DNA of 64,000 nucleotides. It comes from an uncultured Gemmatimonadota bacterium. GTDB taxonomy: Bacteria > GCA-2686955. Below, in pieces: positions 6,522 to 32,988 of this stretch. Below the pieces are notes generated by a model. It saw only the letters and a program-made list of their open reading frames with translations. It had not been told where the DNA came from and did no database searches. The stretch lies in the NCBI GenBank assembly GCA_964490075.1, contig CAZBBK010000029.1, forward strand, positions 383 to 64,382. Reading direction: 5' to 3'. Within the stretch, counting starts at the first letter, position 1. The number at the start of each line of letters is the position of its first letter. Both the position numbers and the translations under genes were made by a program.

Positions 6522-7988
6522 TCAGGCCCCGCCCAGCTCCTCGATCGGCCCCATCACCGCGCGTTCCAGCGCGGCCAGGGCCAGGTGCACGTCGATCACC
6601 GCGTTGAGGCGGTCGCTCTCGGCGCGCCGCCGTGCATCCTCTTCTTGCAGCAGCCGTTGCGAGTCGATGCTGCCGGCCTCGAAGCGGATCAGGGCGATCT
6701 CGTAGGCTCGGGTGGCGGCGCTTTCGGCGCGTTCCAGCACCCGTGCCCGCACCCGAGCCTCCCGGTAGCGCCGGATCTGGGCGCGCAGATCGAGGGTCAC
6801 CCGGCGCCGGGCCTGCTCCTCGGCCAGGCTGCTGCGCTCCACCTCCGCCCGCGCCTCGTCGACCAGGCGCCGGCCGCGGGCACCGTCCCAGAGGGCCCAA
6901 TCGAAGCTCAGGCGCGCCGAGCGCTCGGCCTGACGGCCCTGATAAGCCGAGCGCAGGTCGTGGCCGTTGCCACGCAGCCCCGCGCCCAGCTCCAGCTCGC
7001 CGTTGATGCCCCGCGCCGAGCTCGCCCCGCGGGCCGTCAGGCGCGCACTCTCGGTGGCAAGCCGGGCGCCGCGGATCTCCTCGCGCCGCTCCAGGGCCCG
7101 CTCCAGCAACCGCTCGGGTTCCAGCTCGACCGGCGGCGGCGGGGGCACCTCGGCACGCACCGCGAGCGGCGCGCTGGCCGCTCGGCCGAGCACGTCGTTG
7201 AGCGCCTCTCGGGTCCGCGCCACGCCGCCGCGGGAGGTGATCAGAGAGGCCTCGCTCAGGTCGCGCGCCACCTCAAGCTGCAGCAAGTCGCCCTCGGCGA
7301 TCAGCCCGGCGGCGAACTTCTCCTGGGCGCGTTCGGCCTGGGTGCGGCTGGCCTCGTGGCTGCGCGCACGGATCCCCAGCAGCCCCTGGGCCCGCACCAG
7401 ACCGTAGTACGACTCGACCACCTGCACGCGCAGGTCGGCCAGCGCCGCATCGTGGTCCAGCCGCGCCTGCTCCAGGTCGAGCGCCGCCTGCCGATCGGCG
7501 TCGTCGAGCGAGCCGCTGCGATCCAGCAGCGGCACGGCCAGGCGAGCTTCCGCGATCCCGTCGACCTCGATCGGCAGGTCGGCCTGCTCTTGCGCGCGCT
7601 GGCGGTGCACCCCCGACCCCTCGAGCTCGAGCCGGGCCTGGAAGGGCAGCGGCTGGGTCAGCAGCAGAGCGCCGTCGGCCGCGGTCGATTCCTGGTCGAG
7701 CAGGTGGCGGGCGCCGGTGGTGTCGAACACGCTGAAGGCGCTCAGCCCGCTCTCGGCGCCGACGCTCAGCTCCAGCTCCGGCAGTCGCCGCTGGGCCGAC
7801 GATCGCATCCGCGCCGAACGGGCCTGGGCGATCTCGATGCGCGACTGGCGCAGGCCGAAGTTGGCCTCGAGCGCGATCGCCTGCGCCTGCTCCAGGCCGA
7901 GCGGCGCGGGTTCGGCGGCGCGGGCTTCGCGGGCCAGCGGGGCAACCAGTAACAGGGCGACGCAGCCAACGCAGCGTGGATCAGTCAT
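6522..7988 (-). CDS. TolC-family outer membrane efflux protein
   Basis: There is a signal peptide (CVALLLVAPLAREARA) and a two-repeat alpha/beta architecture with a long coiled-coil-like region typical of outer membrane factor (OMF) proteins. Its ATG overlaps the stop of the upstream permease (ATGACTGA). Confidence 0.75.
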   Translation of the reverse strand: MTDPRCVGCVALLLVAPLAREARAAEPAPLGLEQAQAIALEANFGLRQSRIEIAQARSARMRSSAQRRLPELELSVGAESGLSAFSVFDTTGARHLLDQESTAADGALLLTQPLPFQARLELEGSGVHRQRAQEQADLPIEVDGIAEARLAVPLLDRSGSLDDADRQAALDLEQARLDHDAALADLRVQVVESYYGLVRAQGLLGIRARSHEASRTQAERAQEKFAAGLIAEGDLLQLEVARDLSEASLITSRGGVARTREALNDVLGRAASAPLAVRAEVPPPPPVELEPERLLERALERREEIRGARLATESARLTARGASSARGINGELELGAGLRGNGHDLRSAYQGRQAERSARLSFDWALWDGARGRRLVDEARAEVERSSLAEEQARRRVTLDLRAQIRRYREARVRARVLERAESAATRAYEIALIRFEAGSIDSQRLLQEEDARRRAESDRLNAVIDVHLALAALERAVMGPIEELGGA

Positions 7989-9216
7989 GGCGCAGGGCCT
8001 CGATCGGATCGAGCGCGGCGGCGCGCCGCGCCGGGTAGATGCCGAACACCAGCCCCACCGCCAGGGCGACGCCGAAAGCAAGCGCCACACTGATCGGCGA
8101 CACCACCGCCGAGAAGTCGGCGAAGAGATCGATGGAGTGGGCCATCAGCACGCCGAGCACCGTTCCGGCGATCCCGCCGGCCACCGAGAGCAGCCCCGCC
8201 TCGGCCACGAACTGGGCCACCACGTCGCGGGCGGTGGCGCCCACCGCGCGCCGCACGCCGATCTCCCGCACCCGCTCCTGCACCGTCGCCAGCATGATGT
8301 TCATGATGCCGATCCCACCCACCAGGAGTGATATCCCGGCGATGGCGGCGAGCACCGCGTTGAACATCCGCTGCTCCTTCTGCTCTTCCTGCAGGAGCTG
8401 CTCGGGCAGCACCAGGGCGAAGTCCTCCACGCCATGATGGCGCCGCTCGAGCAGGCGCCGGGTGAGCAGCGCCACCGGGCGCAGCAGCCCACTCTCCGGC
8501 ACCGTGATGGTGATCTGATCCAGCTCCGGCTGCGGAAAGGCGCGCGGAGCACGGATCAACGCCGTCGGCAGCGGAATGTAGACATCGAGATCGACGTCGC
8601 GCGCCGCGAGACGATTGGCGGCCTGCGCGCGTCCCGAACGATCGCCCATCACTCCCACCACCCGATACCAGTCCGATCCCAGCTTCAGCCGCTCGCCCAC
8701 CGCCGCCTCGAAGTCGAAGAGCTTGCGCTTGATACCGTGGCCCAGCACGCACACCCGCGCGCCCCCCTCCATGTGGGAAACCCCGAGCGTCGATCCCTGC
8801 GCCGCGCGCAGCCCGAAGGCCTCGAAGTAGCCCACGTCCACTCCCACCACGGCGCCGCGTCGGGTCCGGTCGTGGCGACTCACGTCGAGCCGGCGTTCGC
8901 TCTGCGCGCTGACCACCACCCGCTCGGGAATCAGCTCCCGCAGCGCCGCCACGTCGCGCCGCGAGAGACCGCGCGAGAAGGCGGCGCGATCTTCGTCGAG
9001 CTGCGCGCTGCTGCGCTCGGGTGCGCGCACGAGGATGTTGTTGACCCCGAGCGAGGCGTACTTGCGCAGCGCCTCGTCGCGCGCCCCGGCGCCGATCGAG
9101 AGCATGGCGATCACCGCCGCCACGCCGAAGATGATCCCCATCGCGGTCAGTGAGCTGCGCATCTTGTGCGAGCGCAGCCCCTCCAGGCTGACGCGCATGA
9201 TCTCCCAGAGCGGCAT
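7981..9216 (-). CDS. ABC transporter permease of the FtsX/MacB type (no ATPase domain)
   Basis: The protein has an N-terminal TM helix, a large periplasmic domain and a C-terminal three-TM FtsX-like bundle (FNAVLAAIAGISLLVGGIGIMNIMLATVQERVREIG). Confidence 0.8.
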   Translation of the reverse strand: MPLWEIMRVSLEGLRSHKMRSSLTAMGIIFGVAAVIAMLSIGAGARDEALRKYASLGVNNILVRAPERSSAQLDEDRAAFSRGLSRRDVAALRELIPERVVVSAQSERRLDVSRHDRTRRGAVVGVDVGYFEAFGLRAAQGSTLGVSHMEGGARVCVLGHGIKRKLFDFEAAVGERLKLGSDWYRVVGVMGDRSGRAQAANRLAARDVDLDVYIPLPTALIRAPRAFPQPELDQITITVPESGLLRPVALLTRRLLERRHHGVEDFALVLPEQLLQEEQKEQRMFNAVLAAIAGISLLVGGIGIMNIMLATVQERVREIGVRRAVGATARDVVAQFVAEAGLLSVAGGIAGTVLGVLMAHSIDLFADFSAVVSPISVALAFGVALAVGLVFGIYPARRAAALDPIEALRHD

Positions 9217-9222
9217 CCGGCG

Positions 9223-10551
9223 CTACCTCCGGCGGTGCCGGCGCCGGCCGCGGCTGCTTTGGCCGGACTGCGCCGGGGATTCGGCCGACCCGGCCAGCTC
9301 CTCGAGCGTCGCGCTGTCCATATCCTGCGCCGCCCGCGGATCGATCAGCGCCAGCGCGTCGCCCTCCTCGACGCCCGAGACCACCACCGCGTGGTTCTCG
9401 CTGCGGGCGCCGAGCTCCACCGGGATTGCGTCCCAACCCGAGCCCTTGGCACGGTGCACCAGGGTCTCTTCCCCCTCCCTGAACACCGCGTCGATCGGCA
9501 AGGTCAACGTGTCCTCGAGCTCCGAGACCACGATCTCGCAGGATGCCGTCATCCCCGGCTTCAGGATCGTCGCCGTGGTGTCGATCAGCACGTTCACCTC
9601 GAACACCTTGACGTCGGACCCTTCGCTCTTGCGGCGCCCCAACGTGGCCACGTCGGAGACGGTGCCGGGAAACACCGGCCCTTCGAAGGCATCGAGCCGG
9701 ATTCGCACCTCCTGGCCGACCGCCAGCTTGGAGATGTCGACCTCGTTGACCTGGGTCTTGACGCGCACCTCGCTGAGATCGGGCAGGCCGATGATCGCCT
9801 GCCCCGGCCAGGGCGTGTCACCCACCTGGAACTTGTTGCCGGTGTTCCAGTTGCGTTCGTAGACGATGAGCCCGCCGGCGGCCGCCTTGACGTCCAGCGC
9901 GGCCCGGTCCTGGCGCGCCTTCTCGAGCTCCGCCCGGGCCTGGTCCAGCTCCAGCTCGAGCCTCCGCCGCTCCTCGGCGTCGATGATGCGTTGCGACCCG
10001 ATCTTGGCGCGGGAGCGCGCCAGGTCGTTCTCCGCCTGGGCGAAGCGCAGCTCCCCCTCGCGGCGGCGCACATCGGGCTCGAACTGCAGCTGCTCGAGCG
10101 CCAGCTTGGCCAGCTCGTGGGAGGCCTCGGTGTTGCGCAGCGCCGCCTCCAGCTCGGCGGCGGTCGCGGCCTGCGAGGCTTGCGCCCGGGTCAGGCTCGC
10201 CTTCTTGATCTCCAGCTCCGCCTCGGTATGGATCATGTGCTTCTCGAGACCGGAGGGGTCGAAGCGGGCGATCACGTCGCCCTGCTCGGCGCGCGATCCC
10301 TCGTCGGCCAGCCAGGTGATCTGCGGCCGAGATCCCCAGTCGCCGACCCGCGGTGAGGAGATGGTCATCGAGCGGGTCGCCTCCACCTCTCCCGACTCGG
10401 TGATGCTGACCACGAAGGGCCCGCGCGCGACCCGCGCGGTCGGCAGCTGGCCGCCGGCGCCGCCCCGCGAGCGCCGGATCGAGACCGCACCGGCGCCGAC
10501 CAGCGCCAGCAGCAGAATGGCGATCAGGGCCTTGGAGCGAAGGGCGTTCAC
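9223..10551 (-). CDS. HlyD/MacA-type periplasmic adaptor (membrane fusion protein)
   Basis: It has an N-terminal TM helix, a coiled-coil hairpin, and lipoyl plus beta-barrel signatures (GLIVYERNW, VRVKTQVNEVD). The start is GTG. Confidence 0.8.
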   Translation of the reverse strand: MNALRSKALIAILLLALVGAGAVSIRRSRGGAGGQLPTARVARGPFVVSITESGEVEATRSMTISSPRVGDWGSRPQITWLADEGSRAEQGDVIARFDPSGLEKHMIHTEAELEIKKASLTRAQASQAATAAELEAALRNTEASHELAKLALEQLQFEPDVRRREGELRFAQAENDLARSRAKIGSQRIIDAEERRRLELELDQARAELEKARQDRAALDVKAAAGGLIVYERNWNTGNKFQVGDTPWPGQAIIGLPDLSEVRVKTQVNEVDISKLAVGQEVRIRLDAFEGPVFPGTVSDVATLGRRKSEGSDVKVFEVNVLIDTTATILKPGMTASCEIVVSELEDTLTLPIDAVFREGEETLVHRAKGSGWDAIPVELGARSENHAVVVSGVEEGDALALIDPRAAQDMDSATLEELAGSAESPAQSGQSSRGRRRHRRR

Positions 10552-10711
10552 GTGAGTCGGATCTCTTTGGATGGGTGCGCCGGGTCGCGGGAGTCTACCC
10601 GCTTTTGCCTCTCGGTCGGATGGCGCTATCCTGAGTGTCGCGCCGGTTCCGCCCTGGCTCTTCGGAATCGCTCAGGCGCGACGCCTGCATACCGTCTCCG
10701 AAGGAGTATCC

Positions 10712-12313
10712 GTGTCCAGAACAGCCCGCATCGGCACCGTCCTGCTCGCCGCGGCTGCGCCCGCGTCTTCCGCCTCGCGCGAACAGGCCACGATCGACCG
10801 CCCCGAGGACCCGATCGAAATGGTCGGCGGCGACGTGGCGCAGCTGATCGACACCGCCGTCGACGGCTTCGCCCTCTACGTGTGGGTCGACGATCAGTTC
10901 CAGCCTCTCAACTTCCAGGTCGACGAGCGCGGACCGGGAGGGGGCTACTTCAGCGAAGAGGCCGAGACCGGCTTCATCGACGACAACGATCAGATCGTCT
11001 TCATGGTCGAGGACGGCGGGGACCGGGCGGGCACCGGCGAATGGCTCGATCATGCCAACGTCGAACCCGATCATCGTTACGAGATCGAGCTCGAGGATCC
11101 GCTGAATCCCGGCGCCAAGGGTTGGGTCTACCTCTTCCTCGGCGCCGATCTGCCGCGCTCTTCCGCCGACTACGTCGACGTGCTCGCCGACGATCCCTTC
11201 CACGTTGCTTCCGACCGCTACGGGGAGGAGTACCTGCCCGGCATTCCCGGGGCGCTCGACGATCTCACCATCCTGCCCGCGATCGGCGGCAGCGGCACCG
11301 ATCTCTACGATCGCATGAAGTTCCGCCTCAAGCTGGGACCGCTCTGGGATTGGCAGACCGAAGAAGACGGTGTCGCGGAAAACACTAACTACAAGGACGG
11401 CTCGGTGCGGGTGATCCTCGCCTACAATGTTACGATTCCGATCCTGGAGTTCGCGCTCTCCAACACCCAGGTCATCTATCACCGGCAGATGTCGATCACT
11501 CGCAACAAGATTTTCCAGCTCTATTGGCCGGAGGCCAAGCGGATGTTGTGGCTGACCGACCTGAATCCCCAGATCGACGACTTCGTCTACTACGACAACC
11601 GTGGCGGCGACAAGGAATCGCCGGCGACATTCACCGATCTGGTCGATGGGGACGGGATGCGCGACGAAGATGAGTCCTTCTCCTTCCAGGAGATCGTCAG
11701 CCCGACGCACGGCGCGTCGATCAGCGTCCAGGACAACGACCCGATTCCCGCCGACGAGACCCTTGCCTACTACTGCGACCAGTGTGGCGAGGAGGCGTGG
11801 CCCGAGACCGGCGACGGAGAGAAGTGGGGCGAGAGCGGCACCTGGCTGAAGCGTATCGAGTTCCAGAACGAGCCTTTCGAGCTGGAGTCCTGGAACTGGC
11901 GCACCGGGCCCTACGACGACGGCAGCCGCGGCCACCACTTTGCCAGCCGCTACTACCACCGCACCCAGATCACCGCCCGCTGGCAGGCGCCGACCGCGAT
12001 CGAGGACCAGGCCCCGCCGGCTCCGGCAGGCGCTGGACTGAGCCTCGCGCAAAACGTGCCCAACCCCTTCAATCCGCGGACCAAGATCTCCTTCGTCGTT
12101 CCGGAGAACGCCGGCGGGGTGCGGCTCGAGGTGTTCGACGTGGCCGGGCGCAAGGTGCGGGTGCTGGTTCGCGAGCCTCTGCCGGCCGGTGCCCACAGCG
12201 TCGTCTGGGACGGCCGGGGCGATGACGGACGCACGTTGCCCAGCGGCATCTACAGCTGTCGGATCGCCACCGCGGAGCGGTCGGCGGCGCGCCGCATGCT
12301 GCTCCTGAAGTAG
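10712..12313 (+). CDS. Secreted protein of unknown function with a C-terminal FlgD-Ig/T9SS-type sorting domain (paralogue 1)
   Basis: A signal peptide (TVLLAAAAPASSA) is present and an AGGAG lies 6 nt before the GTG at 10712. The C-terminus reads LSLAQNVPNPFNPRTKISF...GIYSCRI. The body shares motifs with the next gene: GWVYLF, DRY, PW.TEDG, and YYCDQCGEEAWPETGDGEKWGESGTW. Confidence 0.65.
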   Translation: MSRTARIGTVLLAAAAPASSASREQATIDRPEDPIEMVGGDVAQLIDTAVDGFALYVWVDDQFQPLNFQVDERGPGGGYFSEEAETGFIDDNDQIVFMVEDGGDRAGTGEWLDHANVEPDHRYEIELEDPLNPGAKGWVYLFLGADLPRSSADYVDVLADDPFHVASDRYGEEYLPGIPGALDDLTILPAIGGSGTDLYDRMKFRLKLGPLWDWQTEEDGVAENTNYKDGSVRVILAYNVTIPILEFALSNTQVIYHRQMSITRNKIFQLYWPEAKRMLWLTDLNPQIDDFVYYDNRGGDKESPATFTDLVDGDGMRDEDESFSFQEIVSPTHGASISVQDNDPIPADETLAYYCDQCGEEAWPETGDGEKWGESGTWLKRIEFQNEPFELESWNWRTGPYDDGSRGHHFASRYYHRTQITARWQAPTAIEDQAPPAPAGAGLSLAQNVPNPFNPRTKISFVVPENAGGVRLEVFDVAGRKVRVLVREPLPAGAHSVVWDGRGDDGRTLPSGIYSCRIATAERSAARRMLLLK

Positions 12314-12325
12314 GCGGTGTCGGCT

Positions 12326-13918
12326 ATGAGGCACGAACTCGAGCGGACCCTTGCGACGGCGATCGGGTGCCTGCTGGGCACGGCGGCGCCGCTGTGGGCC
12401 CTCGGGCTCGAAGAGGCGACCCTGGCGCGACCCGAGGAGCCGCTCGAGCTGCGCGGAGCCGATCTGGCGCAGCTCGACGGCCAGCCGCTGGCTCGCCTGC
12501 GGCTCTTCGCCTGGGGCGAGGGCGGGTGGCGGGCGATCCCGGTCCAGTTCGATGAACGCGGGCCGAGCGACAGCTTTTTCGAAAGCGACGATCGGCCCGA
12601 TACCCTCGATGGCAACGATTCGATCGTCTTCATGCAGGAGGATGTCGGAGGCCGAGTCGATGCCGGCACCTGGGTCGACGCCGCCGACGATCATCGCTAT
12701 CAGATCGAGGTGGTCGATCCGCGCCCGGGAGGGGGCCGGGGCTGGGTCTACCTCTTCGCGGGCGAGGCCTTGCCGCCCGCCGAGGACGACTACGTGGAGA
12801 TGGTGGCCTTCGATCCCTTCGAGATCGAGACCGATCGCTATCTGGAGCGCTTTGCCGCCGGCAATCCGGGAGTGTTGCTCGACCTGGTCATCTCCGAAGG
12901 CTTTGGCGGCAACGGTGTCGATCTCTTCGACCGGGTGAAGTACCGCGCCAAGCCGGGCTTTTTGACTCCCTGGTTGACCGAGGACGACGGCTGGGTCGAC
13001 TACGGCGACCGCGAGCCGATCGATGGACCGGTGCGGGTGCTCAACAGCTTCAAAGTGTCGCTGGCCGGATTCATCGACATGATGGACGGTACGGTCTTTT
13101 TCTACCGCCAGATGGTGGTCGTGGAGACCGTCGTGTACCAGATCATCTGGCCCGATGTGCGGCACATGGTCTGGCTGGCCGACGCCAATCCGGAGGTCGG
13201 CGACCTGATCTACTACAACAATGCCGGCGAGCAGGGGATCGCGCTGATCGACACTGTCGACGGCGACGGTTTGCGCAGCACCGATCAGCCGGCTCGATTT
13301 CACGAGTGGCGCAGTCCCAGCGCCGGCGGGGCGCTGACGATTCAGGATCCCTGGGAGATTCCGGGCGACGAGCACCTGAGCTACTACTGCGACGGTTGCG
13401 AGGAGACCCGCTGGACCGAGACCGGCGACGGCGTGCAGTGGGGTCAGTGGGGCAACTGGGTGAAGGGACTGCCCTTTGGCGCCGTGATCCCGACCGAGAT
13501 CTGGAACGTCTGGCTGCCGCCCGGCAGCGAGAGCGTGGGACAGGATTTCAGCGATCGCTTCATGGCCCGCAGTGAAGCCCTCGCCCTGTGGCAGGAACGG
13601 GAGACCACCGAAGTGCGCGAGGACGGCGAGCGACTGCCCGGCCTGCGCGTGGCGCTGCATCAGAACCACCCCAACCCCTTCAACCCAAGCACCACCTTGC
13701 GCTTCGACACGCCCGGCGGACCGCTGCGACTGGCGATCTACGATGCCCGCGGGGCGCGGGCGCGCACGCTGGTGGAGGGCGAGCCCGCTGCCGGGAGCCA
13801 TGCCGCGACCTGGGACGGCCGCGACGACGCGGGCCGGCTTCTGCCCTCGGGCCGCTACCTGGCGTGGCTGCATTGCGGCGGGCGAGTCGAGACCGCCAGC
13901 CTGGTGCTGGTGCGCTAA
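12326..13918 (+). CDS. Secreted protein of unknown function with a C-terminal FlgD-Ig/T9SS-type sorting domain (paralogue 2)
   Basis: It starts 13 nt after the paralogue-1 stop, or 4 nt after if the GTG at 12317 is used. The C-terminus reads ALHQNHPNPFNPSTTLRF...GRYLAWL. The same internal motifs recur, including YYCDGCEETRWTETGDGVQWGQWGNW. Confidence 0.65.
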   Translation: MRHELERTLATAIGCLLGTAAPLWALGLEEATLARPEEPLELRGADLAQLDGQPLARLRLFAWGEGGWRAIPVQFDERGPSDSFFESDDRPDTLDGNDSIVFMQEDVGGRVDAGTWVDAADDHRYQIEVVDPRPGGGRGWVYLFAGEALPPAEDDYVEMVAFDPFEIETDRYLERFAAGNPGVLLDLVISEGFGGNGVDLFDRVKYRAKPGFLTPWLTEDDGWVDYGDREPIDGPVRVLNSFKVSLAGFIDMMDGTVFFYRQMVVVETVVYQIIWPDVRHMVWLADANPEVGDLIYYNNAGEQGIALIDTVDGDGLRSTDQPARFHEWRSPSAGGALTIQDPWEIPGDEHLSYYCDGCEETRWTETGDGVQWGQWGNWVKGLPFGAVIPTEIWNVWLPPGSESVGQDFSDRFMARSEALALWQERETTEVREDGERLPGLRVALHQNHPNPFNPSTTLRFDTPGGPLRLAIYDARGARARTLVEGEPAAGSHAATWDGRDDAGRLLPSGRYLAWLHCGGRVETASLVLVR

Positions 13919-15831
13919 TGAGAGACGAAGTGACCGAAATGACCGATTCGAGCAAGGGATCGAAGTTGACGCTGCCGTGGAGCGAGCCGGCCAATCGGCT
14001 CAGTGTGGCCGACCTGAGCCTCTTCAGAGAGACGATCGGAGCGGAGGCCGACGGCGTCGGACCGCCCGCCGATGAGCACGGCTTTCTCGCGCTCTTCGCC
14101 CGCGCCCTGCGCGCCGGGGCGGAAGGCGAGGGGCTGGTGCGCGCGGCCCTGGACGAGCTGGCCAGCCACGGACTGTGGGAGCTTCTGGCGGAGGCGGCGG
14201 CCGCCGCCGGCGGAGGCGATGCCGAGAGTCCGCACGCCGGCGCGCTGCTGCGCGCCTGGAGCCGACTCGGGCGCGATGCCGAGCTGGCGCGGCTCGGGGG
14301 CGAGCTCGCCGCGCGCGATCCCCAGTACCTTCCCCCGCGCTATCGGCTCGACGTCGCTGCGGCGCTCTTCGAGCGCGGCGCGGATCCAGAGCTGGCGCGA
14401 AGGGTGTTGGCCAGTGCCGTGGAATACGTCGGCTCGAAGGGGAGAGAGGCGGAGATCGAGCGCCTCTTCGAGCTCCTCGCCGACCACGGCGGGGCGCCGG
14501 AGGTGCCCGCGGCGATCGAGCTCTGCGAGCGCATCGCGCGCCGCGGGCAGAGGGTGGCCGGCTACGCGGGTCTCTTCGCCATGGCCCTCGACGACGCGGG
14601 CGCGCCCGAGGCGCTCTGGCGCCTGGTCCGCGACGTGACGCTCTCCACCGGCGAGCTGGATGCCGTGGCCGCCGAGCTCGCTGGCCAGGCGATTGTCACG
14701 CTCTACGGCGCCGAGCTGGGGGCGTTGGGGCCACGCCTGGAGCGCGCCGCGCGCGGCGCCGATCCGCGCGCCGAGATCGAAGTGATCGAGCGCGCCATCG
14801 AGTGGCGCCCCGGCACCTTCGTATGCACCGAAACGGGTCTTTACTGGAGAGTCGTAGCCTGCGACGGCGTCCAAGTGACGCTCGCCAATCCGGCCGGAAT
14901 GGAGCGCCGCGAACCCCTCGATTCCCGGCTCCACGAGCGCGTGAACGCCGACTCGTGGCCGGTGCGGGTGGCCTTCTTCCGCGAGAGCCTGCGCGTGCGC
15001 GCCAGTGCCGAGCCGCTGGCGGTGGTCGAGGAGTTTCTGCGCGACCATCCGGGCAAGCTGACCGACCTCGGGCTGAAGGCCGAGCTCACCGCCCAGTTGC
15101 TCCTTCGGCCCGCGCAATGGGAGGCGTGGTTCGAAGATCTGCGCGCGGCGATCGGGCGCGGCGAGGGTGGGGTCTGCTACGCCGCCCGCAGCCGCGCCTT
15201 TACTCTGGGCAAGCCGAAGCCGGCCGCTCGCGCGACGCGCAAGAAAGCCGCCAAGAATGCGCCTCCGAAACGGCGCGTGCTGCCGATTCCGCGCCCCGAG
15301 GCGAAGGCGCGTGAGCCCGATCTCGATTCGCTCGAGCTGCGCATCGCCGCCATTCCCGAGGCGATGGCGTTGGCGCAGCGGCTGAAGGGGCGCATCAGTG
15401 CCCTGGAGCGCGAGCTGCGCATCGAGCTGCCGGAGCGGCTCAGGACCGCCGCGGCCCATGGCGATCTGAGCGAGAACGCTGAGTACGACGCAGCCAAGGA
15501 GCGCAAGGCGACCGTCGAGGGGCTCTTGACGGAGCTCGCGCCGCGCGCCCAATCGCTGGCGGCGACCGACGGGGTGCGCTGCAAGAGGGACCAGGCCGCC
15601 GTGCTGCGCTCGGTGCGGATCGTCGAGCTTCCGGAACGGACCCGCCGCGTCATTCACCTGGTGCCGAACGAGCTCGCCGATCCCGACCGGGCCTTCGTTT
15701 CGATCGGCTCCCCTCTGGGCAAGGCGCTCAACCGTCGCCGATGCGGCGAGACCGTCGAAGTGTCGCTGCCGGCCGGCAGCCGCGAGGTGACGATTCAGGC
15801 GGTCGGCGAGTTCGGTTGCGAGCCGGAGTGA
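13918..15831 (+). CDS. Large protein with a C-terminal GreA/GreB-like transcript-cleavage-factor module and a ~480-aa N-terminal region of unknown function
   Basis: The ATG overlaps the upstream stop (TAATG). The C-terminal ~160 aa contain GDLSENAEYDAAKERKA and SIGSPLGKALNRRRCGETVEVSLPAG, matching the GreA N-terminal and C-terminal domain signatures. The N-terminal region is Ala/Leu/Arg-rich and helical. A basic linker (KPKPAARATRKKAAKNAPPKRR) precedes the GreA part. Confidence 0.65.
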   Translation: MRDEVTEMTDSSKGSKLTLPWSEPANRLSVADLSLFRETIGAEADGVGPPADEHGFLALFARALRAGAEGEGLVRAALDELASHGLWELLAEAAAAAGGGDAESPHAGALLRAWSRLGRDAELARLGGELAARDPQYLPPRYRLDVAAALFERGADPELARRVLASAVEYVGSKGREAEIERLFELLADHGGAPEVPAAIELCERIARRGQRVAGYAGLFAMALDDAGAPEALWRLVRDVTLSTGELDAVAAELAGQAIVTLYGAELGALGPRLERAARGADPRAEIEVIERAIEWRPGTFVCTETGLYWRVVACDGVQVTLANPAGMERREPLDSRLHERVNADSWPVRVAFFRESLRVRASAEPLAVVEEFLRDHPGKLTDLGLKAELTAQLLLRPAQWEAWFEDLRAAIGRGEGGVCYAARSRAFTLGKPKPAARATRKKAAKNAPPKRRVLPIPRPEAKAREPDLDSLELRIAAIPEAMALAQRLKGRISALERELRIELPERLRTAAAHGDLSENAEYDAAKERKATVEGLLTELAPRAQSLAATDGVRCKRDQAAVLRSVRIVELPERTRRVIHLVPNELADPDRAFVSIGSPLGKALNRRRCGETVEVSLPAGSREVTIQAVGEFGCEPE

Positions 15832-15887
15832 GGAGTCTCACGCAGAGGCGCGAAGGCGCAAAGAGCAAGGAAAGAAGGACAACTAAC

Positions 15888-16072
15888 TAAGGGTCGGCGA
15901 AGAAACAACTCCCGTGTTTGCATCCCATCTGCACCGCGTCTCCGGCCGATCGGCGAGCCCCGAAATCCTCGAAATAGCTCTGCTATTCCTCCGGTTTCGG
16001 ACCTCACCGATCGACCGGATCCACGGCACATCTGGGCGCAAACCCGGGGAGTTATTTCTTCGCCGACCCTAA
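15888..16072. repeat. 27-bp near-perfect inverted repeats (15888-15914 and 16045-16072) flanking a 130-bp, lower-GC segment
   Basis: The left arm is taagggtcggcgaagaaacaactcccg. The right arm is cggggagttatttcttcgccgaccctaa, which is the reverse complement with two mismatches. It lies in the intergenic space between convergent genes, and the right arm contains the TAG stop of the sulfatase-like gene. Confidence 0.5.
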
Positions 16073-17453
16073 CCGCCCCCGCCCAGGTACCCCAGACTCT
16101 CGAGCTGGCTGCGCGTCGCCTGGTCGATGGTCACCAGCGACTCCCGCGGCCTCGGGCACAGGGCGCTGAGTGAATCGAGCTGGCCCTCGAGCGAGGCCAG
16201 CAGCGTGGCATCGACCTCGCGGCTCAGGTCGCGGCGCTCGCCGCGGTCTGCCTCTCGGTCGTAGAGCCGGCAAGCGCCGGTCGCGCCGTCTCGAATCAGC
16301 TTCCAGCGCGGCGTGATCAACGCGCGGTCCTGATCCCCGTAGAGCAGGGCCTCGGCGATGGTCGGTGCCATGGGGGGGCGCGGCCCGAGATCATCCCCTC
16401 CACCAGGCTGATCCCCCGGGCCCCGGGCAAGGGCGGCGCGTCCAGCAGCTCCAGCAGAGTCGGAGCCAGGTCGAGGATCCGGGCGCCGCCGGGGATCGTG
16501 CCATCGTCGCGCGCCGCTCGCGCCCGGCGCAGCTCGGTCATCTGGGCGCCGCCGCCGTGGGAGGGCGGCACCAGGATGCCCGGAACCCAGAGCAGCTCTC
16601 GATGCAGCGTGTGACCGTGCTCGGTGGCACCGTGATCCCAGTGCTCCTCGCCGTGATCGGAGACCACCAGGATCATCGTCTGGCGCGCCTCCCCGGTCGA
16701 GCGCAATGCCCGCATCAGCTCCGCCAGCCAGGCGTCCGCGAAGCGGATATCGGTCGCGTAGAGATGGCGGATATGGGCCCGCAGCGGCTGCGGCAGATCG
16801 GGCGAGGTGAGCAGCTGGCGGCGTACGATCGGCGGCGCGAAGGAGGTCGGCGGGGGCGGCTCGGGCGTCGGGGGCGGCAGATCGGCGTGCGCCAGGTAGG
16901 GAAGATGGGGCTCCATCAGGTGCAGATAGAAGAAGAAGGGGCGGTCCCCGTGCGCCAGGGAGCGCAGCATCTCGAGCGCGCGCGCGCGCAGCTCGCCGCG
17001 CCGCTCCTCGGCGATGAACTCGTAGGACTCGAAGCCCCGATCGAAGCGGGTCCAGGTTTTCAGGTGCGGATTGCTCTGCAGCGCCGCGACGGCATAGCCC
17101 GCGTCGGCGAGGGCCTGGGGCAGGGTGCCGACCTCTTCGGGCAGCGCCTGCATCACTCCGTTGTGCCCGCCGTGGTCGATCCCGAGCTCGGTGGGGTAGC
17201 GCGAGCTGAAGAGCGATCCTACCGCCGGGCGGGTCCATGGCGACTGGCTGATCAGATCCTCGAAGCGCAGTCCGCAGCGGGCCAGCGAATCGAGGGTCGG
17301 AGCGACGCCGGGATCGCCCCCGTAGCTGCCGAGCACATCCGGACGCAGCGTATCGACCAGGATCAAGAGCAGGTTGGGCCTCGGGTCGGGAGCCACGTCC
17401 CGGACCTGGCAGCCCAGCAACAGAGTAAGTGAAATTAGTGACAGTCGTCGCAC
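16069..17453 (-). CDS. Sulfatase-like hydrolase lipoprotein (alkaline-phosphatase superfamily), interrupted by one frameshift near 16380
   Basis: It starts with GTG. There is a lipobox (LLLGCQ). LILVDTLRPD and VVSDHGEE are metal-site motifs. The C-terminal part (PRWKLIRD...RLYDREADRGERRDLS) is in another frame (ORF 16069..17238). The frames switch at catggggggg. Confidence 0.55.
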
Positions 17454-24104: not shown

Positions 24105-26690
24105 CTACTTCTTCCTCTTCTTCTTCCCGCCAAAGAGCCCTTTGAGCCCCTCCAGTCCCTTTTCTTTGAGCTCTTCTACTTCCCGCGTGACCTGCTCCGC
24201 CACCGAGCTGGAATCGTCCTGCCCGGGATCACCCAGCTCTTCGATCAGTCCGCGGCTCAGCTCCCTTGCCTCTTGCTCGGCGCGCTCCTTGAGCTCTGCC
24301 TGCTCGGTCGCGAGGCGGATGCGCGCGGCCTGGGCCGCGGCGTCCGCGACCCGGCGATCGTCGAAGGAGACCCGGGGAGTGAGCGCGGGGCCCGCGATCC
24401 GGATCGGGATCGGGACCGAGCCGCCGCCGCCGGCCAGCGCCGCGAGGGGGGCGGGCAGTCGCTTCTGGATCGCGGCCAGCGCGGAGGCCGGCAGGCGGAC
24501 GTCGAGGGCGAAGTCGAGCACCCCTTCGAGGGAAACTGCGCCGCCACCGGTGAGCGTGATCCCGGCGGCCTCGATCTTCAGATCGTCGAGTGCCAGAGAG
24601 CCATCGTCGATGCGAATCGTCTGCCGCAGATCGGTGGCCCGCAGGGTGGCGAGATCCGGGGTGGCGAGCAGCTTCGCAAGCTCGGCCTGAGCCGGCAGCC
24701 CCTCGATGGCGAGGGCATCGAAGGCCAGGTCGCCGCTGGCGCTCAAGGACGAGAGCTCGATGCCCAAGGTGTCGTCGAAAGCCCCGCGCGCCCGGACCTC
24801 TGCATCACAACTTCCCCCCAGCCCCCCCGCCAGGCCGCCGAAGCCCTCGAAGGCCGGCGAGGAGCGCACCAGCTCTTGGGCCCGCACTCCCTCGAGCGTG
24901 GTCTCGAGATCGTAGCGCGGCGCCTCGGGATCGCTCAGATCGACCTCGCCGGTGGCTTGCACCGATCCCCCGAAGGCGAGCAGATCGGCCGCGACGATGC
25001 GAATACGCCCCGAATCGAGCTCGGCGCTCGCCGCGAGCTGGCGCATCTCGATTTCGTTCGACACCAGGCGGTCGATCTTCAGCGCCAGGCGGCCGTCGAG
25101 CGGGGGCAGCGGCTCGAACCCCTTCGGCGCCGTGGGATCGGGCGGAAAAAGCTGATCGAGGTCGAGGGTGTGGCTGCGCAGGCGGGCATCGAACTGCGCC
25201 CGCGCGCTTTCCTCGTCGAGCCCGGCCAGCGCCAGCGGGCGATCCAGAACGCCGCTCAGCGCCAGGTCGCTGGCGAGGATCGCGAAGTCGAGCTCGTCGA
25301 TCCACAGGCGCTCGGGCGTGAGCCGCAGGCGGGCGTCGAGGTCGCGGATCGGTCCCGGCAGCGAAGGCTCGCTGAGCCAGACGCTGCGCAGCTCGAGCGC
25401 GCCCTCGATCTCGAGCCCCATCGGGTCTGCGATCGGTCCGCCAATCGCCAGCTCCGCGCTCGCCCCACCCTCCAGCCGCAGCGCCTCGGCGGCGGGGTGC
25501 AGGCGCGCCAGCTCTCCGAGCTCGAGCTCGGCATCGATGGTGGCGGCCAGGCGTGCCTCCGCCGTCGGATTCTCGATCTCGGCCCGCACGCTCAGACGAC
25601 TGCCCGCTGCTCGCGCACCGAAGCGCTCCAGATCGAAACGCTCGGGCGTCAGGTGGGCGCGGATCTCGATCTCTTCGATCGCCGCTCCTTGCTCGCCGTA
25701 GGCCACTCGGCCCTGTTCCAGGAGCAGCCTGAGGTCGTAGTCCAGCTCGGCCGCTCCGGCCTCGATGCCCTCATTCCCCACGCCGCCGGCCGCCGACACC
25801 CGCCCCTGCAGCCGCACGCTTCCTCGTGAGCGCGCGTCGGGGGTGATCGGGAAGAGCTCCGCCGGAAGGAAGGCGAAGATCTCGTCGAGCTGGGCCGGCC
25901 CCCCCTCGAAGAGCAGCTCCACGCCGGGCTGCCCCGAGCCGAGTCGCGACACCACACCGTGGAGCGCCACCGGCAGGCCGCCGAGGCGCAGCCTGGCCTC
26001 GTCGATGTGCAAGCGGTCTTCGCCGGTCTCGTAGCGCAGCTCCTTGGAGAGCTCCAGGCGCAGCCCCTGACCCAGCCGCCCCGCGGGTGTGTGCAGCACC
26101 AGCTTCTCGATGCTGCTGCGGCCCTCGAGCTGAATCGTCTGCTGCTCCGGGCTCAGCGCCGCCCGCAGCTCCTCGGAGAAGCCCTCGATCTCCGCCACGG
26201 GTGCGCCCTTCGCGTCCCGGACGTCGATCCGACCCTCCTCGATCCGCAGGCTCTCGACCACGATCGCCAGCGGCAGCGCTCCCTCGCGCGCGGCGCTTCG
26301 CGGCTCGTCCGCACCCGCACCCGCGCCGGCCGCTTCGTCGGCGAGCACGATCTCGAGCTCGGGCCGCTCGATGTCGATGCCGCGCACCACCAGGTTGCCA
26401 CGCAGCAGGGGCGGCAGGGCCAGCTCGAGCGCCACGCTCGCCACCCGCACCAGGGGCGCACCCGGGGCCGCGCTCTCGCCGACGCCGAGATCCTCGAGGC
26501 GCAGCCGCAGGCCGCCGATCAGGCCGAGCGACACATCGCCCACCCTCACCGGCCGCTCGAGCGCCTCGGAGAGGCGCGCCACCGCTAGATCGCGAATGCG
26601 CTCCTCGGGAAAGAAGACCAGCACGAGCGCGACCGCCACCACGGCCGCGCCCGCGATCCAGGCGATGGCTTTGAGCGTTGCCCGCATCAT
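24105..26690 (-). CDS. AsmA-family protein (AsmA/TamB-like outer-membrane biogenesis protein)
   Basis: It has an N-terminal TM anchor (MMRATLKAIAWIAGAAVVAVALVLVFF), a long repetitive beta-rich body with DxxLxLxG-type repeats, and a Lys-rich tail. Confidence 0.7.
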   Translation of the reverse strand: MMRATLKAIAWIAGAAVVAVALVLVFFPEERIRDLAVARLSEALERPVRVGDVSLGLIGGLRLRLEDLGVGESAAPGAPLVRVASVALELALPPLLRGNLVVRGIDIERPELEIVLADEAAGAGAGADEPRSAAREGALPLAIVVESLRIEEGRIDVRDAKGAPVAEIEGFSEELRAALSPEQQTIQLEGRSSIEKLVLHTPAGRLGQGLRLELSKELRYETGEDRLHIDEARLRLGGLPVALHGVVSRLGSGQPGVELLFEGGPAQLDEIFAFLPAELFPITPDARSRGSVRLQGRVSAAGGVGNEGIEAGAAELDYDLRLLLEQGRVAYGEQGAAIEEIEIRAHLTPERFDLERFGARAAGSRLSVRAEIENPTAEARLAATIDAELELGELARLHPAAEALRLEGGASAELAIGGPIADPMGLEIEGALELRSVWLSEPSLPGPIRDLDARLRLTPERLWIDELDFAILASDLALSGVLDRPLALAGLDEESARAQFDARLRSHTLDLDQLFPPDPTAPKGFEPLPPLDGRLALKIDRLVSNEIEMRQLAASAELDSGRIRIVAADLLAFGGSVQATGEVDLSDPEAPRYDLETTLEGVRAQELVRSSPAFEGFGGLAGGLGGSCDAEVRARGAFDDTLGIELSSLSASGDLAFDALAIEGLPAQAELAKLLATPDLATLRATDLRQTIRIDDGSLALDDLKIEAAGITLTGGGAVSLEGVLDFALDVRLPASALAAIQKRLPAPLAALAGGGGSVPIPIRIAGPALTPRVSFDDRRVADAAAQAARIRLATEQAELKERAEQEARELSRGLIEELGDPGQDDSSSVAEQVTREVEELKEKGLEGLKGLFGGKKKRKK

Positions 26691-27685: not shown

Positions 27686-27822
27686 TTCGCTACTCCAATT
27701 CGAGCCGTGAGGACGTTTTTGCCAACCGCGCGCCACGCTACCACTTTTGATCCGAGGAAGGGCCCACAATCTGTTCCGCGAAGCGGCGGTCAAGCCAATC
27801 GCGCCTCGCGCCGATCTACTCC

Positions 27823-29568
27823 ATGAGCAGCAGGTTGGCGGGGGGCCCCGTGTCCGATTCCCCGACGACATTCTCCGCACCACGGATTCGCAAGCCGCTG
27901 GGTGAGATCCTGGTGCAGCGTGGGCTGGTCAACCCGGCCCAGTTGGAGCGAGCGCTGGCGGTCCAAAGGGACCGGGGCGGCATGCTCGGCCGCGTGTTGG
28001 TCGATCTCGGCCTGATCTCCGATTCCCACTTGGCCGAAATCGTCGCCGAGCAGAGCGGTTTCGACTATCTCGAGCTCAGCGAGATCATCATCGACGGCGA
28101 GGTGGTGGAGATGGTGCCGGGAGAGATGGCCCGGCGCTACAACGTGCTGCCGATCGACATTCGCGACGGCCGCCTGGTGGTGGCGATGTCCGATCCGATG
28201 GACGTCCCGGCCCTGGACGAGCTGCGCATCGCCACCGGTCTCGAGGTCCATCCCTGCATCGCTTCCGAGGGTGCGATCGATCGCGCTCTGGTGCGTCACT
28301 ACGGGGACGAGAACGAATTCTCCCGTCTCTGCGGCGTGCTCGGCGACGAGGAAGAGGGCGAGGGGACATCTGCGGAAGGCGAGGAGATCGCCGAAGCCCC
28401 GGTGGTGAAGCTGGTCGACGTGATCCTCACCACCGCGCTGCGCCGCGGCGCCAGCGACATCCACCTGGAGCCGGAGCGCGACGAGCTGCGGGTGCGCCTG
28501 CGCATCGACGGCACCCTGCACGAGATCCCTTCGCCGCCGCGCCGCTACCGAGCGTCGCTCACCTCGCGCATCAAGATCATGGCCGGCATCGACATCTCGA
28601 AGGCCAGCGTGCCCCAGGACGGACGCTTCGAGATCGAGCTCGGGCGCACCCGAATCGGTGTCCGGGTCTCGACCTTCCCGACCATCTACGGCGAGAACCT
28701 GGTGCTGCGGCTGCTCGATCGCATCGGTGCCCGCCGCGGCCTCGAGCGGCTGGGGCTCGACGAGCAGGATTTGCAGGTGCTGCGCGCCGCCACCGGCCGC
28801 CCCCACGGACTGATCCTCATCACCGGGCCGACCGGCAGCGGCAAGACCGCCACCCTGTACTCCATCCTGCAGGCGATCAACTCTCCCGACAAGAACATCG
28901 CCACGCTCGAGGATCCGGTCGAGTATCCGCTGCCGATGATCCGCCAGGGACAGCTCAACCGCAAGGCGGGGCTCACCTTCGCGAGCGGGCTGCGGGCCAT
29001 CCTCCGGCAGGACCCCGACGTGATCATGGTCGGCGAGATTCGCGACGACGAGACCGCCGAGATCGCGGCCCACGCGGCGCTCACCGGCCACCTGGTGCTG
29101 TCGACGCTGCACTCCAACGACGCCGCTTCCGCCCCCGGGCGCCTGATCCAGATCGGCGTCGCGCCCTACCTGATCGCCACCACCCTGGTGGCGGTGGTGG
29201 CGCAACGCCTGGTGCGCTGCGTCTGTTCGGCCTGCGCGGTGGACGATCCCCTGAGCGCCGACGCCGCCCGCGAGCTGGAGCTCGATCCCGGCATTCGGGT
29301 GCGTCGCGGCAACGGCTGCGGCGAGTGCGACGGGGCCGGGACCTCGGGCCGCGAAGGGGCCTTCGAGGTGCTGCCGATCGACGACGATATTCGGCGCCTG
29401 ATCTTGCGCAAGGCCGATGGCAGCGCCCTGGCGGCGCTGGCGCAGACCAAGGGGATGCGCCGTCTGGAAGATGCGGTGCTGGCCAAGGCGCTCGCAGGGC
29501 GGGTGCCGCTCTCGGAATTCCTGCGGCTGCGTCTCGAGCACCGCATGCCCGAGGAGCGCAGGCGATGA
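27823..29568 (+). CDS. Type II secretion/type IV pilus assembly ATPase (GspE/PilB family)
   Basis: It has a GSPII_E N-terminal domain, Walker A GPTGSGKT, Asp/His boxes, and a tetracysteine cluster (CVCSAC...CGEC). Confidence 0.85.
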
Positions 29569-30808: not shown

Positions 30809-31273
30809 ATGTCGATTCAGAAGATTCGCGATGCCCTGGAGACGCGCCGTCGCCTGCGTGCCCGCGCCGAAGCCGGCTTCACCCTGGTGGAGTTGGTGGT
30901 GGTGGTGGCGGTCCTCGGCCTGCTGGCCGCGGTGGCCATTCCGAAGTATCAGAACATCACCGCCGAGGCCAAGCTCTCGGCCTGCGAGGGGGCTCTGGGC
31001 GGGCTGCGCTCCGGAGTGGCGCTCTTCTACGCCAACTCCGCGGTCACCAATTCCGGATCGGCCTCCTGGCCCAGTCTGGTCGAGCTGCAAGCGGTCGGGA
31101 CGGTGATGATGCAAGAGATCCCCGCCAATCCTTATGCTGGTGACTACGGATCGGTGATCGTTGCCGGCACCACCCGCGGCGTGGTGGTCGAAGCCGATGC
31201 CGGGTGGGCGTACAATGCGACCAGCGGGGAGATCTGGCCCAACACCGACGATGCGGGCGAGAACGAGCTCTAG
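30809..31273 (+). CDS. Type IV pilin / pseudopilin (major subunit candidate) with an unusually long basic leader
   Basis: The leader plus prepilin motif reads MSIQKIRDALETRRRLRARAEAG-FTLVELVVVVAVLGLLAAVAIP. The predicted cleavage is after Gly with Glu at +5. A GAAGGAG lies 5 nt before the ATG. Confidence 0.75.
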   Translation: MSIQKIRDALETRRRLRARAEAGFTLVELVVVVAVLGLLAAVAIPKYQNITAEAKLSACEGALGGLRSGVALFYANSAVTNSGSASWPSLVELQAVGTVMMQEIPANPYAGDYGSVIVAGTTRGVVVEADAGWAYNATSGEIWPNTDDAGENEL

Positions 31274-31440
31274 CTAGGCCACCGGCAGTCCCGAGGGCCG
31301 GTCGCAAGAGGCGCTCCCCAAGTGTCGCTATCGCCTGGCGGCGAGTCGCGAGGCGAGCACCGGTGGGAAGCGGAGGGAGTGCCCTTGCGGCGCTGCTCGG
31401 GACTGGTCGGGATCGCGTGGAGTCCACTGTCGAGTTCCAG

Positions 31441-32988
31441 ATGATGCTGATCAGAACACCGATGCGCAAGCTGCGCACGATGCTCGCCAGACCGCAAGCG
31501 GTCGAGATCGCGCAGCGGATTCGCGAGATCGTGAGCATCGATTTGCCCCGTGGATCGAGCTGGACCGGGGGGCTCGGCGAGCTGGCCCAGCGCCGCTCGT
31601 CGATGCGCTTCGGATTGTGCACCGACGGTGGCCCGGAGGCGGTGACGCTGCGGCGCGGCGTCGATGGCGACACACTGGGCGCGGCGGGACAGTGGGACTC
31701 GGAAGGCGGAGCGCGCTGGCCGCAGGGGGGACGCGCGGCCCCCAGGGGCGTGCACGTGGTCGTCACGGGCTCCGGGATGATCACTCGCAGCACGCGGATC
31801 GCGAGCGGCGTGCGGGGCAATCCAGCGGCCACCGCGCGCTGGGAGATCCTCAGCCAGCTCAAACATCGCAACAAGCGTTTGCCGATCCTGGTGCGCCGGG
31901 AAGAGGACCAGGAGGATCGTTGGACCGCGGTGGCGGTTCCGCGGTCGACGCTGGATGCCGGCGCCCTGCGGTGCCGGGGTCTGAACGCGGTGGAGTACAC
32001 CTTCGCGCCCTTCGCCGCGGCGGCCCTCTCGACTCGGGAGCACCGCGTCCGCGGCGTGGAGCCGCCGGTCGAGCTGGTGCTGCACGTGACCGGCGAGTGG
32101 GCGGTGCTCGGCATCGGTCGCGGCGGGGCACTGGAGATCGTACGCGAGGTCCCGGCGCTGGCACGGCAAGGTTGGACCGAAGAGGGCCTCGGGGATGTGG
32201 TTCGCACCCTGGAGTTCTATCGCTTTCGGATGCGTGGCGACGACATCGCCCGCGTGGTGGTCAGCAAGGAGGATCTGCGCGAGCAGGAGCGGTCCCAGCT
32301 GGAGCGGAGCTTCGCGCGCCCAGTGGTCGACGTCCGCGAGCTGGCATCGAAGGTGATCGGTGAGGCGGTTCCGAGCTCGGCCCGAGCGCTGGCGATCGGA
32401 GCGGCCCTGGCGCCGGGATTCAGAGCGATCGACGAAAGTGTCGCGGCGGCGGGACGGGGCGGCGGCAGGTCCGAGCTGAAGAGGGTGCGCCGCGCGGCGA
32501 TGTTGGCGGCCCTGCCTCTGGCACTGCTCTTGGTGGGCGGCCACCAGTGGAGCCGGGGCAGCCGCGCGAGCGAATCCGCCGCGGCGGTGGAGGCGCGCAT
32601 CGCCAGCATCGAGAGTCGGATCGCGGCCCTGGCCGTGGTGCCGCCGGCACCGGCTCCGGAGCAGCCCGCGCGCCCGCCCGACGCGCTCGACGCCGTGATG
32701 CGGGTCGCGGCCTCGATCCCGGCCGAGATGGTGGCGCAGGAGATCTCCTGCATCTCGGCGACCAACGGCCCGGTCGATGTCGCACCCACGCGCCTCGATC
32801 TGCGCCTTTCGCTGGCCGGGGAAGAACCCGAGACGGCGCTGCGCGCGCTCGATCACTACTTCGACCTTCACGCGGCGGTCGCCGGCTGGAGCTTGCGCTC
32901 CGATCCCGTCGTCGAAGAGACCATGATGGCCGGTGCTCCGGCGATCGATCTGCGGGTCTCCTTCGACACCACCGTGGAGGGACTCTGA
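31441..32988 (+). CDS. GspL-like / PilM-PilN-like bitopic assembly protein
   Basis: It has a ~430-aa cytoplasmic region, one TM helix (AAMLAALPLALLLVGG), and a periplasmic coiled-coil plus ferredoxin-like domain. The start codon is uncertain. Confidence 0.4.
   Translation: MMLIRTPMRKLRTMLARPQAVEIAQRIREIVSIDLPRGSSWTGGLGELAQRRSSMRFGLCTDGGPEAVTLRRGVDGDTLGAAGQWDSEGGARWPQGGRAAPRGVHVVVTGSGMITRSTRIASGVRGNPAATARWEILSQLKHRNKRLPILVRREEDQEDRWTAVAVPRSTLDAGALRCRGLNAVEYTFAPFAAAALSTREHRVRGVEPPVELVLHVTGEWAVLGIGRGGALEIVREVPALARQGWTEEGLGDVVRTLEFYRFRMRGDDIARVVVSKEDLREQERSQLERSFARPVVDVRELASKVIGEAVPSSARALAIGAALAPGFRAIDESVAAAGRGGGRSELKRVRRAAMLAALPLALLLVGGHQWSRGSRASESAAAVEARIASIESRIAALAVVPPAPAPEQPARPPDALDAVMRVAASIPAEMVAQEISCISATNGPVDVAPTRLDLRLSLAGEEPETALRALDHYFDLHAAVAGWSLRSDPVVEETMMAGAPAIDLRVSFDTTVEGL

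Follow-up and report, generated by a model that had tools for sequence, protein, structure and literature searches.

The galactose-mutarotase-like beta-supersandwich serves as a sugar-binding or catalytic domain in mutarotases, in lyases of polysaccharide lyase (PL) families PL4 and PL26, in fucanases of glycoside hydrolase (GH) family GH174 and in OpgG and OpgD of family GH186, and the type A sorting domains of type IX secretion systems (T9SS) are immunoglobulin-like (Ig-like) sandwiches found at the extreme C-terminus of proteins whose N-terminus bears a signal peptide. Here we analyzed two adjacent genes, designated A and B, in a 64,000-nucleotide stretch of DNA from an uncultured Gemmatimonadota bacterium (contig CAZBBK010000029.1 of assembly GCA_964490075.1, hereafter the window), whose predicted secreted products resemble both of these systems in part. 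An earlier reading of the same DNA, referred to below as the original prediction, had called them the most unexplained block of the window.

In terms of core fold, the A and B proteins are similar to mutarotase-like carbohydrate-active enzymes (CAZymes) such as the PL26 exo-rhamnogalacturonan lyase 5xq3, the PL4 structure 1nkg, the GH174 endo-1,3-fucanase (8jd7 and 9k1g), OpgG and OpgD, the C-terminal domains of GH38 and the aldose 1-epimerases, with an identity in structural alignments of 5% to 12% and neither a profile nor a sequence match to any of these. For the periplasmic OpgG and OpgD, the fold match comprises the supersandwich together with the Ig-like C-terminal domain. A key difference from the mutarotase-like CAZymes is that the part of A and B between signal peptide and tail (the body, residues ~30-440) contains an extra, highly conserved N-terminal sandwich for which no structural analogue was found in PDB. 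The tail itself is like the T9SS type A sorting domains in being an Ig-like sandwich of ~75-80 residues at the extreme C-terminus of a protein with an N-terminal signal peptide, while A and B differ from T9SS type A cargo in scoring below the T9SS-specific cut-offs and in coming from a Gemmatimonadota-labelled metagenome-assembled genome (MAG) rather than from Bacteroidota.

The most fitting description of the feature is a tandemly duplicated branch, specific to one clade and bearing a T9SS tail, of a large family that is not curated and whose members have a mutarotase-like core and an N-terminal domain without an assigned fold. With a probability of roughly 0.45, we propose that A and B are expressed together and form a pair which is secreted or displayed at the surface through a T9SS-like route and which binds or cleaves a glycan; the proposal rests on the fold of the supersandwich, on polar residues that are invariant and on the modules for export and anchoring described below.

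Paralogy, architecture and fold of the two proteins

The two genes are located as follows.

10712..12313, + strand: gene A, secreted paralogue (A-type), open reading frame (ORF) of 533 residues, G+C content at third codon positions (GC3) 0.84, 40% identical to B
12317..13918, + strand: gene B, secreted paralogue (B-type), 533 residues, or 530 residues from an alternative ATG at 12326

Gene A has a GTG start nested in a longer ORF (10571-12313) and ends with a TAG at 12311-12313, and gene B starts either at the GTG at 12317, leaving a gap of 3 nucleotides after A, or, according to public gene calls, at the ATG at 12326, leaving a gap of 12 nucleotides; the spacing of 3 to 13 nucleotides that had been claimed thus holds for either choice of start. 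The GC content of the window is 64% to 73%, and the GC3 of the A and B frames (0.84 to 0.85) is typical for coding frames in the window, which supports the sense frames as genes. An antisense ORF of 1092 codons covering both genes (10595-13873, - strand) was rejected as a gene, as its GC3 did not pass the filter, unlike that of the sense frames, and looks like a high-GC artefact. The protein P0001 is 100% identical to B.

The BLASTP comparison of A with B gave 211 identities in 528 aligned positions (40%, E 3e-130), collinear from the signal peptide to the last residue, and every motif of the string listed in the original prediction is present in this alignment, so that the claim of tandem paralogy can be upheld. 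Judged from the alignment, A and B appear to be an old tandem duplicate. In related loci the A-type orthologues are 50% to 69% and the B-type orthologues 51% to 68% identical, in comparison to ~40% between A and B in every genome, suggesting that the duplication predates these lineages and that both copies were kept intact.

The layout of the two proteins is given below; the limits of the body domains of A were transferred from the model of B, those of its N-terminal sandwich via the pairwise alignment.

10712..10777, + strand: A, predicted Sec signal peptide, residues ~1-22, from inspection of the translation (MSRTARIGTVLLAAAAPASSAS, cut before REQ)
10799..11146, + strand: A, N-terminal beta-sandwich, residues ~30-145, with QxDER, DxND and DxG motifs
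11168..11992, + strand: A, galactose-mutarotase-like beta-supersandwich, residues ~153-427
11768..11845, + strand: A, Cys-pair block YYCDQCGEEAWPETGDGEKWGESGTW, from the A/B alignment
12071..12310, + strand: A, C-terminal FlgD-Ig or T9SS-type-A-like domain, PF13860 at 45.1 bits (cut-off 27)
12317..12400, + strand: B, predicted Sec signal peptide, residues ~1-28, from inspection (…LLGTAAPLWA, cut before LGLEE)
12428..12766, + strand: B, N-terminal beta-sandwich, residues ~38-150, holding Q77, D79, E80, R81, D98, D101, D109, G111 and Y145
12788..13606, + strand: B, galactose-mutarotase-like beta-supersandwich, residues ~158-430, holding D205, K208, G237, R240, D289 and D359
13382..13459, + strand: B, Cys-pair block YYCDGCEETRWTETGDGVQWGQWGNW, from the A/B and family alignments
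13682..13915, + strand: B, C-terminal FlgD-Ig or T9SS-type-A-like domain, PF13860 at 36.7 bits (cut-off 27), strands in the model

By inspection, both N-termini show a basic and a hydrophobic stretch as well as a cleavage-like site of small residues, in agreement with the signal peptides predicted earlier. The model of B, obtained with AlphaFold2 from a 48-sequence alignment, had a mean predicted local distance difference test score (pLDDT) of 85.6 and a predicted template-modelling score of 0.80, with residues 1-27 at a pLDDT of less than 50. It is all-beta: the sandwich (~38-150) is followed by a large domain rich in sheets (~158-430), then by a linker of low confidence and finally by a C-terminal sandwich of six or seven strands (459-531, pLDDT 86 to 94) which reaches the last residues. 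According to the model, A and B would thus each consist of an N-terminal sandwich (~115 residues), a mutarotase-like supersandwich (~270 residues) and a C-terminal Ig-like domain. The Foldseek search with the B model gave a best query template-modelling score of 0.43 to 0.44, to PL26, and we consider the assignment of the body core to the galactose-mutarotase-like beta-supersandwich confident at the level of the predicted fold.

No such assignment was obtained at the sequence level. At E ≤ 1, the matches of Pfam and NCBIfam to A and B were confined to the tail and left the body without any, and none of the 48 aligned family members had a Pfam match to the body. A phmmer search against all PDB sequences returned FlgD Ig domains for the tail and nothing for the body, and hmmsearch with the body profile gave no relevant match in the same sequences at E ≤ 10. 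By sequence and profile the body did not fall within aldose 1-epimerases, PL4, PL26, GH174 or GH186, and for want of membership at this level we would not file it under any CAZy-type family. The literature search gave nothing usable on structural details of PcRGLX/PL26, on Omp85 combined with a supersandwich, or on FlgD-Ig tails in MAGs. The original prediction, which could not place the body and proposed profile searches and AlphaFold models of it, is therefore borne out by the profiles, which led to no family, but not by the model, which gave a recognizable fold.

The body family and its conserved residues

Among 5.8 billion proteins, the word-indexed search found only about ten full-length tailed relatives, called 'hypothetical' in every source giving a name, together with ~80 further matches sharing the tail only. 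When HMMER was run exhaustively with a profile of the body only, 2,552 representatives of clusters at 50% identity were matched at E ≤ 1e-3, and 823 of these at E ≤ 1e-30; because of this number the block called most unexplained is better regarded as one clade of a large unmodelled family. As counted by these profile matches, the body family appears large and not rare, and neither Pfam nor NCBIfam has a model for it. Its range includes marine Gemmatimonadota-labelled MAGs, MAGs labelled Acidimicrobiales or Solirubrobacterales, and many unnamed metagenome lineages. Most members have ~440 residues and a signal peptide but no tail, and distant members read YYVDD…PGQWGNxGY in place of the YYCDxC block. 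The Cys pair of this block and the tail are specific to one clade and do not characterize the body family as a whole, while the D and two G residues of the block are conserved across the whole family.

The domain architecture was scanned in 19 long relatives. A C-terminal Omp85 barrel was found in seven of them (P0226, P0258, P0215, P0255, P0260, P0261 and P0269), in the order signal peptide, body, linker and barrel. Similar to the PlpD-like type Vd autotransporters, these seven distant relatives, though neither A nor B, have a passenger-then-barrel order; they differ from that type in lacking a patatin passenger, POTRA domains were not detected in them by Pfam, and their topology is predicted. 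The body fused to the barrel could act as a passenger in a type-Vd-like manner, or it could form a new arm of an Omp85 protein in the periplasm. PKD domains were found in three of the 19 (two with CarboxypepD_reg and one with zinc ribbons), FlgD_ig or Por_Secre_tail in two (one with fn3), and a sub-threshold 'lipo-invert' tail in one. In addition, four proteins (P0009, P0132, P0136 and P0174) carry two complete or near-complete bodies in one chain, and this parallel with the A/B gene pair hints that two bodies may work together.

Taken over these architectures, the body seems to be a module which acts outside the cytoplasm and which can be combined with one export or anchor device or another, and the family could serve as an example of such a single module. 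The 'choice-of-anchor' domains of NCBIfam are likewise joined to alternative C-terminal modules, a likeness by behaviour only, and no named choice-of-anchor model in NCBIfam matched A or B. The word-indexed search with a profile of the N-terminal domain gave short fragments for the most part and revealed no further combination of domains. Five relatives of 250 to 280 residues (P0293, P0300, P0308, P0310 and P0314) matched the N-terminal sandwich at E 1e-27 to 1e-34; as their contigs are 150 to 790 kb long, they may be real short proteins or the products of split genes and not pieces cut off at a contig end.

Conservation was calculated from 186 family sequences aligned to the profile. The most conserved positions, in the numbering of B, are the following, with the fraction of the sequences in which each is conserved.

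D79, D101, R240: 1.00
Q77, G237: 0.99
D205: 0.98
G111, Y145: 0.97
D109: 0.95
K208: 0.92
D289: 0.90
D98, D359: 0.88

About half of these residues are in the N-terminal sandwich (QxDER, DxND and DxG), including in A, whose sandwich keeps the family-invariant residues, and the others are in the supersandwich (DR.K, DGPVR and YYxD). Since A and B retain every one of them, neither protein looks degenerate. The invariance of charged residues over very distant lineages suggests that they may form a ligand, metal or catalytic site rather than a scaffold. Secreted proteins which combine a beta-supersandwich and a sorting tail are a known kind of protein and would not surprise specialists, and the family merits an entry as a domain of unknown function.

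The C-terminal tail and the competing explanations

The tail of both proteins belongs to FlgD_ig (PF13860), at the bit scores given above, and the FlgD chains in PDB match residues 461-516 of B. A flagellar FlgD role was considered and rejected, as the FlgD equivalogs of NCBIfam scored 15 to 31 bits against cut-offs of 230 to 383 and over the Ig domain only. The B model and the inspected signal peptides agree with the T9SS-type architecture, i.e., an Ig-like C-terminal sandwich of ~70-100 residues and an N-terminal Sec signal, and weak Foldseek matches to PorU and PorZ were obtained. PF18962, a T9SS type A sorting model, was found at E ≤ 0.1 in six of 48 family members (best E 1.2e-4). The same tail is found on many unrelated exoproteins, including S8, C1 and other peptidases, multicopper oxidases and VCBS/FG-GAP proteins, some of which are annotated as 'T9SS type A sorting domain-containing protein' in MAGs of Fidelibacterota, WOR-3 and Bacteroidetes. 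Gemmatimonadetes are named in a review as a group in which the T9SS 'may also be present' (PMC11285876). Export of A and B by a T9SS is thus plausible but unproven from these comparisons, and the family could help to define C-terminal domains which serve as sorting signals outside Bacteroidota.

In the proposed mechanism, A and B would be expressed together and exported by Sec, after which the tail would direct them by the T9SS-like route through the outer membrane, so that they end up at the cell surface or in the medium. They would act as a pair, probably as a heteromer, and a pocket lined with conserved Asp, Gln, Lys, Arg and Tyr would bind, and possibly cleave, an extracellular glycan. The tight coupling of the two genes supports the pair, as the 3-nucleotide gap between A and B recurs in two related loci (L001 and L005). 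If this proposal is true, ~2,500 protein clusters without a database name would represent a new enzyme or lectin family with a bearing on marine and soil polysaccharide turnover, and its invariant residues are ready to be mutated.

Several results weigh against this proposal. The T9SS type A sorting models did not reach their cut-offs for A (TIGR04183, 20.4 bits in comparison to 23; PF18962, 14.7 in comparison to 27) and gave no match for B at E ≤ 1, so that of the FlgD-Ig/T9SS-type tail claimed originally the FlgD_ig part stands above its cut-off in both proteins but the T9SS-specific part does not. No T9SS gene was found among the ~35 ORFs scanned in the window, whose gene content is housekeeping genes and two T2SSE-type ATPases. 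Pfam, NCBIfam and PDB searches found no link by sequence to a CAZy-type or other characterized family, and the same supersandwich fold is present in proteins unrelated to glycans, namely the P1 domain of YidC, the chloroplast NDH protein PnsB2 and a capsid protein of PBCV-1. Many of the top conserved residues are in the N-terminal domain, which lacks a structural analogue. The signal peptide is alone in most relatives, which could thus be periplasmic, and no carbohydrate-utilization theme was seen in the inspected gene contexts of distant relatives.

A more specific claim is that the body is a new CAZyme family, either a glycoside hydrolase or a polysaccharide lyase, with an active centre of invariant Asp, Gln, Lys and Arg spanning the N-terminal sandwich, whose fold would be new, and the supersandwich, acting as a dimer or pseudodimer and reaching its place by at least three export or anchor routes (the T9SS-like tail, a type-Vd-style Omp85 barrel and plain Sec); we put it forward only tentatively and regard it as rather unlikely. 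It is similarly doubtful that A and B are non-catalytic surface proteins, such as a lectin-like adhesin or a surface-layer pair, in which a Ca2+-stabilized beta scaffold would be anchored by the C-terminal domain and the acidic residues would be structural metal ligands. The all-beta multi-sandwich model with its Ig-like tail fits such proteins, the acidic DxND and DxG motifs resemble Ca2+ sites, the PKD, fn3 and CarboxypepD_reg modules joined to relatives are typical for surface proteins, and no catalytic signature was recognizable by Pfam, NCBIfam or PDB profile. However, Q77, K208, R240 and several Asp residues are near-absolute over ~2,500 clusters from very different phyla, which exceeds the usual conservation of adhesins, and adhesin families are usually repetitive and variable while the body family is a fixed unit of ~400 residues. 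A and B could also be envelope factors of the periplasm or outer membrane, in which case the family would act mainly in the periplasm, in OpgG/D-like envelope-glycan metabolism or as a chaperone-like domain with an Omp85 machine. This is improbable in our judgement, even though the Omp85 barrel fusions are recurrent, the part of classical Omp85 proteins N-terminal to the barrel is periplasmic, most relatives carry a signal peptide only, and the fold matches the periplasmic OpgG and OpgD and the P1 domain of YidC. The tail of A, B and their clade is known on exoproteins, and the Omp85 fusions may be type-Vd-like, as in PlpD, an Omp85 fusion with a secreted N-terminal passenger. In addition, the family has members in MAGs labelled with the actinobacterial orders Acidimicrobiales and Solirubrobacterales, which are monoderms without a periplasm or Omp85.

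The last explanation concerns the following neighbouring genes.

6522..10551, - strand: divergent OEP, MacB-type permease and HlyD-type adaptor efflux genes (Pfam matches; context)
13918..15831, + strand: GreA-fusion neighbour gene, 637 residues, ~480-residue N-terminal extension and C-terminal GreA, probably without a functional link

A and B could form a functional module with these neighbours, tied by translational coupling to the GreA-fusion gene or serving as cargo or accessory of the MacB/HlyD/OEP efflux system, which we consider very improbable. The TAATG junction reported in the original prediction is present (GCGC-TAATG-AGA), the TAA of B (13916-13918) sharing one base with the ATG of the GreA gene (13918). 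The scan of 10300-16400 found promoter and terminator counts at the level of shuffled sequence, with no terminator-like site between A, B and the GreA gene. The order A-type, B-type and GreA fusion was found by tblastn of the window proteins against fetched relative loci in six loci (L001/L011, L004, L005, L012 and the fragment L013), with the efflux genes OEP, MacB and HlyD divergent upstream in three of them (L004, L005 and L012). On the other hand, the efflux genes are absent in L001, and the GreA gene follows the B-type gene after a gap of 45, 31 and 155 nucleotides in L001, L004 and L005, respectively, from which the TAATG overlap is taken to be local. By a narrower alignment, the tailed clade was found in only 3 of 185,579 species genomes, all Gemmatimonadetes- or Gemmatimonadota-labelled MAGs, in which flanking genes for a sulfatase (L004, L005 and L013) and a GAF sigma-54 activator (L001, L004 and L012) are kept equally. 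Neither a GreA fusion nor an efflux neighbour accompanies a third paralogue or six tail-less relatives, and no mechanism joins a cytoplasmic transcript-cleavage factor to Sec-exported proteins. The idea of a functional GreA operon was rejected, since relatives do not share the overlap and since the synteny extends over the lineage and includes the sulfatase and sigma-54 activator genes, and the A-B-GreA order looks like shared ancestry in a narrow marine lineage and not like a functional unit.

Genomic neighbourhood and other features of the window

The A orthologue is the first gene of the pair in L001, L004, L005, L012 and L014, and the B orthologues take the second place. The third paralogue, type C, is ~38% identical to A and B, has the tail and lacks the CxxC (L007, 8001-9602; L015, 4982-6349). 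It sits singly, in a synteny with TrkA and an AMP-binding enzyme that is conserved in two genomes, and an NAD-dependent epimerase gene follows it downstream in L007; one MAG carries A, B and C. The contexts of type C and of the six tail-less relatives showed no recurrent neighbour theme. A tandem arrangement followed by a GreA-domain gene, which it had been proposed to look for in all homologues, was found only in related Gemmatimonadota-labelled MAGs, type C and the six tail-less relatives being single. Homologues scattered singly had been named beforehand as one of two findings that would refute the original prediction, and were found, but a confident profile hit of the body, the other such finding, was not. 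In one context (L009, 9281-10048) a tail-less body gene overlaps a downstream DUF3047 gene by 4 nucleotides, which was not seen in the other contexts.

In the GreA-fusion protein, residues ~488-630 belong to GreA_GreB_N (PF03449, 46.8 bits in comparison to the cut-off of 24.5) and GreA_GreB (PF01272, 48 in comparison to 26.9), confirming the GreA domain reported for this gene, whose last 145 codons specify a complete GreA, while the full-length GreA equivalogs remained below cut-off because of the 480-residue N-terminal extension. This extension had no match in the local Pfam copy. The public precomputed matches list HTH_GRAD (PF27167) on the GreA fusion, as weak for the gene of the window and unmarked for the L001 orthologue. 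The orthologues have 634 to 641 residues and are conserved in the lineage.

Elsewhere in the window, two ATPases of the T2SSE family are encoded at 27751-29565 and 35178-36257 (both + strand), one of them having an MshEN domain, which suggests a type IV pilus or type II secretion system locus. The two ORFs between them (31144-32985 and 33012-33620) had no Pfam match, and the same applied to two ORFs with coding-like GC3 at 41257-43419 (+ strand, 721 residues) and 25830-26585 (+ strand, 252 residues). Finally, a protein of 1061 residues encoded at 46964-50146 (+ strand) contains Malectin (42-190), CotH kinase (345-653) and Lamin-tail (921-1022) domains and is apparently an unusual multi-domain extracellular CotH protein.

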